A stretch of DNA of 10,472 bases from Promethearchaeota archaeon (GTDB lineage: Archaea; Asgardarchaeota; Thorarchaeia; Thorarchaeales; Thorarchaeaceae). Positions within the stretch are counted from its first letter, which is position 1; every line of letters begins with the position of its first letter. Below, piece after piece: positions 4,458-9,712 of the stretch. Location of the stretch: assembly GCA_027031765.1 (NCBI GenBank), contig JALVPN010000171.1, forward strand, positions 1-10,472, given 5' to 3'. Position numbers and translations under genes: made by a program. The notes under the pieces are model-generated. The model was not told where the DNA came from. It did not search any database and saw only the letters and a program-made list of their open reading frames with translations.

Positions 4458-5204
4458 ATGGAAGAGGACTGCACGCAATGGGAACGCCTTGCAGGCGAGT
4501 TTGCGGAGGCTGAGAACTACTACCAGGCTGCACACCAGTACAAACACGCTGCCAGCTGCTATCTTGACAGGGTCATTGAGATGACGAGGAAGGCGGCCGA
4601 GTACTTCCACATGTATGCAGAACAGAACGTGGAGAAGGACGACCACAGGACTGCTGCCACCGCATACTTCGAGGCCGCGACACAGTACCGTCAGGTCGAT
4701 GACATGGGCACGGCGCTGACACTGTACGAGAACGCAGCTGAACAGGCCCTGAAAGAGGACATGATAGAGACCGCCGCGCAGGCCTACCTCTGGGCCGCGT
4801 ACGCCTGCTACAGGCTCGGGAACATGGACTACTTCGTCGAGTGCGCCAAGAACATGGGCGACCTGTACGACAGGGCAGCCGACAGGGCACTGGAGGCAGG
4901 CAATGCCCAGCGCGTGGTGATGGACCTGGCCCTTGCTGCAATGGGGCTTGCCACTACGGACAGGGTGGACGACGCGCTTGAACGGGTCGAGAAGGCAAAA
5001 CGCGTAATCGGTAAGACACGCGGGGACTGGATGGAGACCATGCTTGAGTTCAGTGAGGCCCTGGCGAAGAATGACCTCGACACGGCAGATGACCTGCTCA
5101 GGGAGTTCCGCGAGGAGGAGACCGTACAACAGGTCATGCGGGCATGTCTTGAGATCAGACAGGAGGAGGCCAAGAAACGGCGGCGCGCGGCCGCCAGTCA
5201 GTGA
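4458..5204 (+). CDS. SNAP/Sec17-like (NSF attachment protein fold) TPR-type alpha-solenoid protein
   Basis: 248 aa, all-helical and acidic, with repeated A..Y..AA..Y motifs (AAHQYKHAASCY, AATAYFEAATQY, ALTLYENAAEQA, AAQAYLWAAYAC). No signal peptide or TM segment. Strong GC3 bias supports coding. The SNAP-specific assignment is by eye. Confidence 0.75.
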   Translation: MEEDCTQWERLAGEFAEAENYYQAAHQYKHAASCYLDRVIEMTRKAAEYFHMYAEQNVEKDDHRTAATAYFEAATQYRQVDDMGTALTLYENAAEQALKEDMIETAAQAYLWAAYACYRLGNMDYFVECAKNMGDLYDRAADRALEAGNAQRVVMDLALAAMGLATTDRVDDALERVEKAKRVIGKTRGDWMETMLEFSEALAKNDLDTADDLLREFREEETVQQVMRACLEIRQEEAKKRRRAAASQ

Positions 5205-6445
5205 ACCCTCACAAGGGAGCTCTGTACGACCTCGGGCCCTCCATCAGCTGATGACACCTTCACTGTGACCAGCTGGTCGCCAGCAGCCAACGCCCGCACA
5301 TATAGCTGGAACCTCATGCGTTCGCCGGAGCCGAGGAACTCGACCGTCTTCTTGCTGCTGCCCAGCGTCAGCACCAGACCATCGGAGAGGTCAATGGACA
5401 GCTCCAGACCACTCGCTGGGCCATCACCCTCGTTACCCAGCACGGCGTCTATTACGATCTCGTCGTTGAGACCGCAGCTGATACGCTGGGGCTCCAACGC
5501 AAGCGTGAGCGCTGGGGGGGCATGCTGTACATCGAACTCGATGGTGTTGCTGACCTTGTGTGCAAGTACGTGCGCACCCTCAAGGGTGAGCCTGAACGGG
5601 CCTACCACGGCACTACCACTGAGTACAGGGATCACCTCCAGCAGCCACGAGTCCTCAGCCAGTGGCTCACCTGAGAAGACCGGGCCGCGTGTCAGGGTGA
5701 CGTTGTTGCTCAGCGAGACCCGGTGTGCGGTGACCCTGACAGGCTCAGGACAGCGGTAGCGGAGCTCCAGCTCTAGGGGCACCTTCACACTGACCGCCGA
5801 CGGCTCAGGGCCAGCCCACTCCAGTACGACCTCCGTGCTCAGGGCCAGGTCCACGCACGACACCACAAACTCGACGAGCTGGCGCTCGGCATCAGAGGCC
5901 TTGACTGCTGAGGCCAACCGCTGGATCTTTGACAGAGGGGTCTCCTCCCCGTGACATAGGACGGCCACACACGTCTCTGCGAAGGCATACGGTGCAGTCT
6001 TCTTACCACCGGGTAGGCGCTTGTTGGCCTTGTGGAGCAGGTTCACAGCTGTGTCAAAGCTGCGGGCCGCCAGGTAACAGAGTATCGACAGTGAGATGGC
6101 CCGGCCAGACTGGGACACGCGTCGGGCCCGGAAGAGGTGGTCAGATGCCTCAGAGTACAGGCCACCAGCCTCGTCAAACCGCCGGTCGATGAGCAAGACC
6201 TCCGCAGCGGCTGTCTTCATAGCCGCAGCACGGGTGTGGTCGTCAGCCTGTAGAGCGGTGTACGCTGCCTCACGGAAGTACTTGACGGCAAACTCGACAT
6301 CCTCCACCTCCAGGAACAGGCGTGCCGCCTTCTCGTACTCCACGCTCGCATAGTCGGGGTAGTCATCCTCAATCTCCTTCAGGGCCTTCTCAATATGCCG
6401 CTTCGCCTTCTTCACGGGATCCTTCTTGAACAGTCTTCCGAACAT
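5198..6445 (-). CDS. SNAP-like TPR solenoid (aa ~1-205) fused to two Ig-like beta-sandwich domains (second one DUF11/CARDB-like)
   Basis: 415 aa. The N-half is helical with EYEKAARLF, YFREAAYTA and RRFDEAGGLYSEAS. The C-half has alternating beta-strand patterns, including VLGNEGDGPASGLELSIDLSDGLVL, which resembles the DUF11/CARDB V.N.G..PA..V motif. No signal peptide, so it is likely cytoplasmic. Confidence 0.75.
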   Translation of the reverse strand: MFGRLFKKDPVKKAKRHIEKALKEIEDDYPDYASVEYEKAARLFLEVEDVEFAVKYFREAAYTALQADDHTRAAAMKTAAAEVLLIDRRFDEAGGLYSEASDHLFRARRVSQSGRAISLSILCYLAARSFDTAVNLLHKANKRLPGGKKTAPYAFAETCVAVLCHGEETPLSKIQRLASAVKASDAERQLVEFVVSCVDLALSTEVVLEWAGPEPSAVSVKVPLELELRYRCPEPVRVTAHRVSLSNNVTLTRGPVFSGEPLAEDSWLLEVIPVLSGSAVVGPFRLTLEGAHVLAHKVSNTIEFDVQHAPPALTLALEPQRISCGLNDEIVIDAVLGNEGDGPASGLELSIDLSDGLVLTLGSSKKTVEFLGSGERMRFQLYVRALAAGDQLVTVKVSSADGGPEVVQSSLVRVH

Positions 6446-6450
6446 CGGTC

Positions 6451-6520
6451 GGCCTCACTCGTCTGGACAAGAAGACCCAAAAGCACACCGGCTTTATCGG
6501 TTTCGGCCAGCAGCAGGAGG
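6451..6520. promoter_or_regulatory. 85-bp divergent intergenic region with one central TATA-like element and SD-like motifs for both genes
   Basis: CTTTAT at 6492-6497 (ATAAAG on the minus strand). AGGAGG at 6515-6520 lies 10 nt before ATG 6531. GTGAGG on the minus strand lies ~7 nt before the ATG at 6445. Confidence 0.4.
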
Positions 6521-6530
6521 CACCAGACAC

Positions 6531-7748
6531 ATGGAAGGACTACCGGTCTACTGGTCCGACCCCACCAGGACAGAGTTCGAGGTCACGGTCGAGAGCTGCA
6601 GGGATGCCGGCGACCACTTCGAGGTCACACTCGGTGAGAGCGTCATCAGGCCTGCCGGCGGGGGACAGGCTGGCGACCGTGGCACCCTCGTGGCCGACAG
6701 GGAGGTCAGGGTCCTCGACACCGCAGAACACAACGGCAACGTGGTGCTCATCACTGACGAGCCGGTACAGACCGGGCCCGCGGTGCTCACTATCGATGCT
6801 CAGTGGCGCCGTTCCATGATGAGGAACCACACCGCAGAACACCTCTTCGTCGCGACGCTGGTGCACAAGTACCCGTCCGTCAGACTCGGCTACATCTGGA
6901 TTGACGGCGAACGGGGCACTGTGGAAGTCAGTGGCCACCTCACAGAGGACGACCTCTTTGATGCTGAGCGCAGGGTGCAGGGAGTGATTGCGCGTGGGCT
7001 CCCAGTACAGAGCACGATGGTCGAGGTCTCTGCACTCGACGCGTCAGTGCGTGCCAGAGAGGGGGTACGCTCAAGGAGTGGCAGGGTACGCGTCGTCAGC
7101 ATCGGCGACTATGACCGTTCGGCCTGTTCAGGCACCCACGTACTCAATACGGCAGACATACGCGTCTTCAAGATAGTCGACTACAGGCTCAGTGATACCG
7201 GCGCGCATGTCGAGTTCCTGACAGGTGACAGGGCCGTTGCCAGGTTGTCCCACGTCTTCAATGAGGTGCTGCGGCGCAAGTACACCTATCCCTACGAGCT
7301 CGACCAGATCGGTGCCGTCCTCGACAAGGGCAAGAGGGCCGTCAGTGAGCACACAGCCCTCAGAGAAAAAGTGATGGGGCTCCTGCGCTCCGGGCCCGCC
7401 GTCGAACGCATCGGCAATACCACCTTCATGCACGAGTTCCTGCCCGGTTTCGATGCGAAGGCCATGCGCCTGTGCGCAAAGTCGTTGCGTCTGGGAGCAC
7501 CATCAGCCGTGCTGTTCTTCGCACCCGGCAGGAAACCCACCGTGCTCCTGTGGACGGACGGGCTGCCACACGGGGCCTCACACTATATCAGGGACGCCGT
7601 GGTGCGCCTCGGAGGAAAGGGCGGCGGTAGCCGAGAGGTCTTCACAGGCGGCTTCAGGGAAACCAGCGATGATGTAGCGCTGTTCGAGCAGCTCGTCGAG
7701 AGTGTCAGACACACCCTCAACGCCGACGTCAGGGTCACAGGCACCTGA
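6531..7748 (+). CDS. alaX: Alanyl-tRNA editing protein AlaX with C-terminal helical and DHHA1/C-Ala domain (405 aa)
   Basis: Contains GGGQAGDRG, the Zn-binding HTAEH (HxxxH) and CSGTH (CxxxH) motifs, and C-terminal GGKGGG (DHHA1). Start reassigned to ATG 6531 (MEGLPVYWSDP..TEF, typical AlaX N-terminus, SD upstream). The track's 6426 start would overlap the divergent gene. Confidence 0.9.
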   Translation: MEGLPVYWSDPTRTEFEVTVESCRDAGDHFEVTLGESVIRPAGGGQAGDRGTLVADREVRVLDTAEHNGNVVLITDEPVQTGPAVLTIDAQWRRSMMRNHTAEHLFVATLVHKYPSVRLGYIWIDGERGTVEVSGHLTEDDLFDAERRVQGVIARGLPVQSTMVEVSALDASVRAREGVRSRSGRVRVVSIGDYDRSACSGTHVLNTADIRVFKIVDYRLSDTGAHVEFLTGDRAVARLSHVFNEVLRRKYTYPYELDQIGAVLDKGKRAVSEHTALREKVMGLLRSGPAVERIGNTTFMHEFLPGFDAKAMRLCAKSLRLGAPSAVLFFAPGRKPTVLLWTDGLPHGASHYIRDAVVRLGGKGGGSREVFTGGFRETSDDVALFEQLVESVRHTLNADVRVTGT

Positions 7749-8575: not shown

Positions 8576-9712
8576 ATGTGGAAGAGTAACAAAGCTGTTG
8601 CGGCAGTGGGCCTCGTACTCTTGCTAGTGGGCGCAAGTCTGCTACCGTACTTGTATGCGTACTACCCACCGCTGAGCTGGTTGGGTCTCGCAGGTATTGT
8701 TCTAGTTATCATTGGACTAGTCCTCGAAATCAAAGCAATACGTTCATGGACTTCTGGAAGACGTGGGAGCGTTGGAGAAAGCCTTAGAGGAATCTTACAG
8801 CTCGGCGAGACCGGGGAGCCGGATCTGAGCATGCGTCAGACAATGATGAGAAGCCCATTCTTTCACGAGTTCACGTTCACGGAGGTGGGGTTCAGGCTCG
8901 TCCAGCGACTCCACAGAGAGCTGGCGTTCCTGCTGCAGGATGCAGGCATCAGCATTGGTACTTCAACGTGTAGAGTGTTCAACACGAACTACGGAACGCT
9001 GTACTACGGCTACCTAGAGGGGGTTCCGGACATCGCCCTCCAGAAGAGGCGATTGTCGCTCCTCGTCAGTGCACTCAGAGCAATCTTTGGCATCGTAGGA
9101 GCCATCATGATTTTGTATGGCACGCTTGTCTTGCGCTACTCCTACTACCTCTATGATGTCCAATCCGGATTGATACTGCTTACTATAGGTCTCGTTCTCA
9201 CAGCCATTGCAGTCAAGCTCAAGCCCAAGAAACTGCTCCTACCGCCCTACTTCGGTCGATACAGATTGATGTACACCGGCTCCATCGAACCACCAATCAT
9301 CACGGAGAGCACGGAAACTCAAGGCCTGGTAGCAGCATTACCAGGAGTCACAAGAAAGACGGCAGTGTACGAGTCGCCACAGGACATGGTACTGTATGTC
9401 GCCCACTCATTTGAACCGAGCGAGGAAGCTCTAGCACATCCTGAAGTTGCAGAGCGTACTAGGTTCTTTGACTACATCACGGAAAGAATACGGACGCAGC
9501 TGAACGCACGGCCACAGGAAACGCCGCCTGCAACAAAGCTCCATGAGGAAACAACACTAGCCATACAGGCCTTTGTAAAGAAGTATGTCGAACCAAACGA
9601 CAAACGGGCGGATGTCGTAAGCGAGGTTGTGCAACGATGGCCTCTACACGAGGGACGCTACACGCAGAGAGCATCATTCCACAACCCATCTGACGAGGGA
9701 ACATTTAACTGA
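8576..9712 (+). CDS. Hypothetical membrane protein with 4 TM helices in two hairpins, each followed by a soluble domain
   Basis: 378-aa ORF with hydrophobic segments at about aa 8-28, 33-51, 162-186 and 195-213. It has a promoter and SD upstream. Codon usage is more AT-rich than the flanking genes. No family recognised. Confidence 0.8.
   Translation: MWKSNKAVAAVGLVLLLVGASLLPYLYAYYPPLSWLGLAGIVLVIIGLVLEIKAIRSWTSGRRGSVGESLRGILQLGETGEPDLSMRQTMMRSPFFHEFTFTEVGFRLVQRLHRELAFLLQDAGISIGTSTCRVFNTNYGTLYYGYLEGVPDIALQKRRLSLLVSALRAIFGIVGAIMILYGTLVLRYSYYLYDVQSGLILLTIGLVLTAIAVKLKPKKLLLPPYFGRYRLMYTGSIEPPIITESTETQGLVAALPGVTRKTAVYESPQDMVLYVAHSFEPSEEALAHPEVAERTRFFDYITERIRTQLNARPQETPPATKLHEETTLAIQAFVKKYVEPNDKRADVVSEVVQRWPLHEGRYTQRASFHNPSDEGTFN

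Follow-up and report, generated by a model that had tools for sequence, protein, structure and literature searches.

The 10,472-nt stretch of DNA analyzed here (the window: contig JALVPN010000171.1 of a Promethearchaeota archaeon, forward strand, to which all the positions below refer) carries a complete gene, P0001, encoding an uncharacterised 415-aa protein in which an adaptor fold of the SNAP/tetratricopeptide repeat (TPR) type is fused to two immunoglobulin (Ig)-like domains. In our reading, the helical head of this protein is genuinely related to the SNAP fold, though distantly and in truncated form, its nearest known relatives being gamma-SNAP, Sec17/alpha-SNAP, and HAP40. With moderate confidence, we take the protein as a whole, which is conserved in most Asgard archaea, to be a soluble adaptor or scaffold without enzymatic function; its most probable role is that of a protein-binding scaffold rather than that of a working SNAP or TRAPP subunit. 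The gene and its parts are as follows.

5198 to 6445, minus strand: target gene P0001, complete, 415 aa, with its ATG at 6445 and its TGA at 5198-5200.
6419 to 6445, minus strand: N-terminal motif, aa 1-9, unstructured and conserved (M-F-x-x-F-L-K-x-D), hydrophobic and basic.
5837 to 6418, minus strand: SNAP-like helical domain of the TPR type, aa 10-203, with 10 helices forming five hairpins.
5525 to 5833, minus strand: Ig-like beta-sandwich 1, aa 205-307, with the invariant residues W210-A-G, S266-W, and G282-P283.
5204 to 5509, minus strand: Ig-like beta-sandwich 2, aa 313-414, CARDB/MG-like, with the invariant residues N338, G340, G342, A344, and G362.

A preliminary description of this DNA had pointed to an open reading frame (ORF) at 5198-6445, which proved to be correct and to lie on the minus strand; the plus-strand frame at these positions was ruled out, its translation being full of stops. 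The orthologues of 415-417 aa found in the order Thorarchaeales (Thor) align with the target from end to end at 50-56% identity, and their mean column identity (67%) is equally high across all three domains. Purifying selection acts strongly on the family throughout Asgard archaea. In the AlphaFold2 model built with 26 orthologues, the predicted local distance difference test score (pLDDT) amounts to 90.2 for the whole protein and to 93.8 for the Ig tandem modelled alone, and the two beta-sandwiches of about 100 aa announced in the preliminary description were indeed recovered. Helices 1-6 of the head are regular, with 17 residues each and a period of 20 residues, and the final four helices match the C-terminal bundle of SNAPs. 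Residues 1-6 have a pLDDT below 50. The N-terminal motif to which they belong is conserved among the Thor orthologues and recognisable in most of the distant Asgard members, and is followed in the target by P10 and a K-K-A-K-K run. Neither a signal peptide (the absence of which had already been pointed out) nor a transmembrane segment was found in any of the 16 family members analyzed; the N-terminus of the target is strongly charged, and its highest 19-residue hydropathy window (1.83) lies within the final helix of the head and is not conserved in the orthologues. No enzyme family was detected by the Pfam scan of the target and the family members.

The similarity between the head and the SNAPs exceeds chance, because gamma-SNAP tops the PDB searches made with the single sequence, the Thor profile, and the pan-Asgard profile, and SNAP-family chains occupy the top 10 structural matches. 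With the target sequence alone, gamma-SNAP (PDB 2ifu) was the top PDB match (E = 0.008); with the Thor-only profile it was again the top match (E = 8e-4 and 4e-4), and with the pan-Asgard profile it reached 2e-8, followed by Sec17 at 5.4e-6, as against 6e-4 for the best generic TPR. The SNAP signal therefore strengthens as the diversity of the profile rises from a single sequence to Thor and then to pan-Asgard sequences. HAP40 was matched by the latter profile with an E-value of only 0.05. The Pfam SNAP model (PF14938) is matched by 12 of the 16 family members and TPR_12 by five; homologues of the target score 25.2, 26.4, 30.6, and 34.9 bits with a gathering cut-off of 25, and two distant members match in the same register as the target (34.9 bits, residues 9-148 vs. 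87-228 of the profile, and 30.6 bits, 9-186 vs. 90-264). The likeness to a gamma-SNAP solenoid claimed in the preliminary description therefore holds.

In the best sequence and structure registers, the start of the target corresponds to about residue 84-95 of SNAPs: HMMER aligned target residues 11-100 with residues 92-182 of the 2ifu chain, and profile positions 13-137 with residues 95-219. The head, which is about 200 aa long, is thus the equivalent of SNAP residues ~86-292, covering the later hairpins and the C-terminal bundle. The three peptides which had been picked out as resembling ordered segments of gamma-SNAP were located at aa 15-44, 80-94, and 115-133; the second and third align with 2ifu about where they had been placed, whereas the N-terminal placement of the first corresponds to a weak secondary alignment of 4 bits. 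The suggestion that central repeats are missing has to be replaced, since it is the two N-terminal hairpins which are lacking, the target starting at about SNAP residue 86-95. The head shows the TPR-like twisted helical sheet closing in a C-terminal helical bundle which characterizes SNAPs, and the structural superposition takes in this non-repeat bundle, with 11-16% identity between the head and the SNAPs. The full SNAP length of about 290 aa, including the N-terminal hairpins with the membrane-attachment loop region, is not found in the target, nor is a free end to the bundle, through which SNAPs contact NSF and stimulate it, the last helix (aa 185-203) leading straight into the first Ig domain.

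Several points weigh against this relationship, or against the function proposed on the strength of it. In the search with the pan-Asgard profile, alpha-SNAP obtained an E-value of 1.5e-3, which is no better than those of the kinesin light chain or FLU TPRs. The target itself scores 23.8 bits against the Pfam SNAP model, under the cut-off of 25. This cut-off discriminates poorly because the model is loose and also finds matches in 4 of the 14 control prokaryote genomes (two of them over the cut-off); it likewise has matches at eight places in the target's own genome. When a Thor-only profile of the N-terminal domain was searched against 1.84 billion representatives, no eukaryotic SNAP was retrieved at E <= 1e-3, and apart from the target family itself, only fragments and a small number of giant TPR proteins were matched. 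Archaeal TPR proteins make up the nearest language-model clusters, among them PF14938-tagged ones of Bathyarchaeota and Methanobacteriota, so that "SNAP-like" may be a label for a broad class of archaeal TPR proteins. The gene context provides no dependable functional clue, since the neighbours differ between the Asgard lineages, and the binding of a partner by the target is a prediction.

If the protein were a generic TPR plus CARDB protein, its likeness to SNAPs would result from a shared 40-residue hairpin period and convergent packing rather than from specific common descent, and its function would be that of any TPR scaffold, a co-chaperone or a regulator, for example. The structural comparisons argue against this: the SNAPs are 3.5-4 Z units better than every other TPR, with about half the root-mean-square deviation (rmsd), over some 190 residues, whereas the best unrelated TPRs (Pins/LGN) reach a Z of 14.6-14.9 with an rmsd above 4 A. 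The improvement of the gamma-SNAP and Sec17 E-values with the diversity of the profile and the consistency of the register across independent members point in the same direction, and we regard this explanation as unlikely.

A functional proto-SNAP would hold a helical-bundle substrate along the groove of its head and bring a Cdc48/NSF-type AAA+ ATPase to it, the Ig domains adding specificity for the substrate or the membrane. The closest structures are indeed SNAP-family chains, and the part of the fold which is retained (SNAP residues ~86-292) is the part relevant to NSF: the deletion of up to 160 N-terminal residues of alpha-SNAP is reported to have little effect on the stimulation of the NSF ATPase (PMC2139964). 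The genome of the target also encodes two Cdc48-type AAA+ ATPases with CDC48_N domains. Cdc48 is universal in archaea, however, so that its presence is uninformative, and no Cdc48 gene adjoins the target in any of the lineages examined. The C-terminus of alpha-SNAP has to be free, with a penultimate Leu, whereas the corresponding end is fused to an Ig domain in the target. No SNARE domain (PF05739) was detected in the genome, which is 95% complete, the best score (14.8 bits) being below the cut-off and equal to the noise obtained with the controls. A role of this kind is therefore quite improbable. Lacking the membrane-loop hairpins and a free C-terminus, and encoded in a genome with no detectable SNARE, the target is not a canonical SNAP.

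The Ig tandem is of the generic, ordinary prokaryotic CARDB/DUF11 type. Its domains are seven-stranded beta-sandwiches resembling CARDB/DUF11 structures, and the tandem fits prokaryotic DUF11/CARDB arrays with TM-scores of 0.77-0.81. At the sequence level, the profile of the tandem retrieved nothing under an E-value of 0.4 among the PDB sequences, and the DUF11, CARDB, and BatD models of Pfam found no match in P0001; at E <= 0.01, weak matches were obtained with DUF11 in 5 of the 16 members and with BatD in 3, and P0135 was the sole member to exceed any of the cut-offs of these models (BatD, 24.9 vs. 24.1). Surface-type DUF11/CARDB repeat proteins from Planctomycetota and Methanobacteriota match the tandem best, and its structure matches in the PDB are mostly MG, pilin, and adhesin domains. 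This would suit a cell-surface protein, export being usual for CARDB/DUF11 domains, with secretion by a non-classical route. The absence of signal peptides and transmembrane segments throughout the family, the charged start followed by an N-terminal TPR domain, and the fact that the gene is single-copy and strongly conserved, unlike those of fast-evolving surface proteins, make export to the cell surface very improbable indeed.

The preliminary description had also noted that an alpha-solenoid followed by cytoplasmic Ig-like domains is the layout of the large TRAPP subunits and had proposed a trafficking adaptor bridging the TRAPP and adaptin architectures. The layout itself is real, since TRAPPC8-11 consist of a GTPase-like domain, a long alpha-solenoid, and four Ig-like domains, with a length of more than 1000 aa (PMC10152722), and a small solenoid-plus-Ig arm of the present kind might be imagined as a subunit of a proto-TRAPP, coat, or tether, docking on an Asgard TRAPP core or a small GTPase. 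The top Foldseek match of the whole model is a TRAPPII chain (7u06_A, E = 6e-11), TRAPPC13_C was matched under threshold in 2 of the 16 members (25.4 bits in one homologue vs. a cut-off of 27.9), and two Bet3-type TRAPP genes are present in the genome. In addition, the distant 410-aa homologue P0139 (ENA ERZ27247977) divergently adjoins a gene encoding a 335-aa fusion of Roadblock/LC7 and a small GTPase (Arf/Ras/Roc). The Foldseek match has a TM-score of only 0.25 and an rmsd of 20 A, however, and no TRAPP chain occurs among the 50 best VIA structural matches. With the Ig tandem alone, TRAPPII ranks 38th, beneath ciliary and transglutaminase Ig domains, and the DUF11/CARDB arrays fit far better. 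The target has no GTPase-like domain and only two Ig domains; no match with a Sedlin_N/TRAPPC2-type docking subunit was found in its own genome, and the Bet3-type genes are located on a contig other than that of the target. As regards the adaptins, Alpha_adaptinC2 was matched in 1 of the 16 members (E = 0.0025, 18.5 bits vs. a cut-off of 27.6), and there are no adaptin ear structures among the structure matches listed for the Ig tandem. The kinship of the Ig domains with TRAPP and adaptins was consequently set aside as non-specific, in view of the TM-score, the rank, and the weak Pfam matches; the target is not grouped here with TRAPP or the adaptins, and a TRAPP, coat, or tether subunit seems very unlikely.

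The family is widely distributed among Asgard archaea. A sequence search gave 155 matches, and the 120 of them listed range from 100% to 49% identity, nearly all with a length of 412-417 aa; the named entries among the matches listed belong almost all to Candidatus Thorarchaeota, and the names given to the matches in the databases are "hypothetical protein", "TPR repeat protein", and "TIGR01451 family". When 185,579 species genomes were scanned by pattern, Thorarchaeota-type records alone were retrieved, this being a search for close relatives which is silent on absence elsewhere. Among sequencing runs, no RNA run containing the gene was listed, the one run listed being a hydrothermal-vent metagenome which may have been the source of the DNA. 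With the Thor profile, the gene was identified in 81 of the 85 genomes of its own GTDB family, the four genomes without it being 71-87% complete, while in the other Asgard families this profile gave only weak matches with the Ig region, in ORFs of similar length. Six of these ORFs show the same architecture, with an N-terminal sequence of the TPR/SNAP type. A broader profile including them was then applied to the Asgard genomes which are at least 90% complete, with a match threshold of E <= 1e-10, and found a match in 150 of the 189. The matches are full-length wherever the contig is uncut, and usually single-copy. The counts per family amount to 39/39 in the target's own family and to 82/89, 11/11, and 5/5 in three others; among the same 189 genomes, several further Asgard families gave no match with this profile.

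If the target is a scaffold of the kind favoured here, its twisted helical sheet would, by analogy with SNAP and HAP40, grip an elongated and probably helical protein partner, while the Ig tandem would serve as a second surface for protein binding or self-association. The conserved hydrophobic-basic peptide at the N-terminus may tether the protein to a membrane or a partner.

SNAP-head proteins form a wider set in these Asgard genomes, and the target is one of them. The features adjoining it in the window are the following.

4458 to 5204, plus strand: neighbour gene encoding a stand-alone SNAP-like helical protein of 248 aa, convergent with the target.
6446 to 6530, no strand assigned: interval separating the target from the AlaX-like gene, probably a divergent promoter region, placed according to the start positions.
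6426 to 7748, plus strand: AlaX-like tRNA_SAD gene, running divergently from the target and encoding 440 aa if read from the listed TTG at 6426.

The stop codons of the neighbour and the target overlap by 7 nt (TCAGTGA). The 248-aa protein scores 29.2 bits against the Pfam SNAP model, over the cut-off, and hhalign aligned it with the target N-domain (94.3%, E = 1e-7, 21-179 vs. 56-218); it is a SNAP-like paralogue of this head. Of the 85 genomes of the target's GTDB family, 78 contain it, nearly always next to the target, and it is also present in the sister family, at a distance of 7 kb from the target; outside these two families it was found in one genome only, with a weak match (E = 1.3e-7), and it is confined to the Thor order. 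The complex predicted between the target and this neighbour (score 0.00, mark 0.32) counts neither way.

Two further ORFs of the same genome also have SNAP-like heads. The one encoding 646 aa (L003:475-2415, minus strand, contig C41) scores higher against the Pfam SNAP model than any other protein of the genome (47 bits) and lies about 12 kb from the two Bet3-type TRAPP genes (L013/L014, C41:24514-24885 and 27558-27935), one of which contains an in-frame TAG in the search output. The other, encoding 591 aa (L006:1468-3243, plus strand, contig C186), begins with a head weakly resembling SNAP/TPR proteins, after which comes a CARDB-like Ig segment aligned by hhalign with the second Ig domain of the target (46%, E = 2e-4). 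This suggests that the fusion of a SNAP head with Ig domains is a recurring Asgard architecture.

The window has a guanine-cytosine (GC) content of about 61%, and its further genes include those encoding a class-I HMG-CoA reductase, the AlaX-like tRNA_SAD protein, and a large membrane protein. Since the orthologues of the AlaX-like protein are 394-403 aa long and the listed start gives 440, translation of this gene probably begins at the ATG near 6531. In Thorarchaeia and a sister family, the target and the AlaX-like gene remain a divergent pair, and the synteny block of Thorarchaeia includes the AlaX-like gene, the target, the neighbour, the HMG-CoA reductase gene, and a tRNA-synthetase gene. 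In other Asgard lineages, the target's homologue adjoins either an AMP/thymidine-phosphorylase-like gene or one encoding a Roadblock-GTPase fusion. A functional tie to the neighbouring genes was set aside, as the block is syntenic within Thorarchaeia but the neighbours differ in these other lineages. Elsewhere in the window, the GC content falls from about 0.61 to 0.52-0.57 between ~7750 and 10000, a region which may be foreign or inserted DNA; the 378-aa membrane protein encoded at 8576-9712 gave only a weak match with NfeD_membrane. The 752-aa protein encoded at 424-2682 on the minus strand is apparently a multi-pass membrane protein, with long hydrophobic stretches, and matches no Pfam family at E <= 0.5.

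SNAPs are core components of the eukaryotic membrane fusion machinery. The literature search yielded no paper reporting a SNAP homologue in Asgard archaea, including two recent structure-based surveys of Asgard eukaryotic signature proteins, nor any paper on the target family, which agrees with the remark in the preliminary description that the fusion was not recognisable as a described family. The ancestry of the SNAP fold thereby gains a concrete candidate: a single-copy protein, kept in most Asgard lineages, whose head equals HAP40 in its closeness to SNAP. A far-reaching conjecture, to which we attach little probability, would be that the eukaryotic SNAPs have no closer prokaryotic relative than this pan-Asgard family and that a SNAP-head adaptor of Asgard archaea, already working with a Cdc48/NSF-type ATPase and dismantling helical-bundle complexes at membranes, gave rise to SNAP/Sec17 and later to HAP40. 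If the family did include a precursor of the SNAPs, SNAP would join the eukaryotic signature proteins and the NSF-SNAP-SNARE cycle would have an archaeal forerunner; if the target is a scaffold only, it is still a well-conserved and uncharacterised Asgard protein with a confident model.

Among the known systems, TRAPPC8/9/10/11 (Trs85/120/130) share with the target an alpha-solenoid followed by cytosolic Ig-like domains, but with its 415 aa, nothing before the solenoid, and two Ig domains, the target does not have the layout of a large TRAPP subunit. The CARDB/DUF11/BatD proteins (PF07705, PF01345, PF13584; 3idu) are typically secreted, multi-repeat proteins with no TPR head, whereas the target has just two such domains and is a cytoplasmic protein. 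In comparison with the SNAP family (2ifu; 1qqe, 9nly; PF14938), the target lacks about 85 N-terminal residues, corresponding to two hairpins including the membrane-attachment loop region, and carries two Ig-like domains where the SNAPs have a free C-terminus. HAP40 (F8A; PDB 6x9o, 9yr6), the SNAP-derived partner of huntingtin, differs in being restricted to eukaryotes (unikonts), in having a proline-rich insert, and in having no Ig domain. Further parallels are the helical heads of the 248-aa neighbour and of the 591-aa and 646-aa ORFs, which are paralogous to that of the target, while the lengths and the C-terminal parts differ: the 248-aa neighbour has no Ig domain and is found in the Thor order only, whereas the target family spans most of the Asgard lineages.

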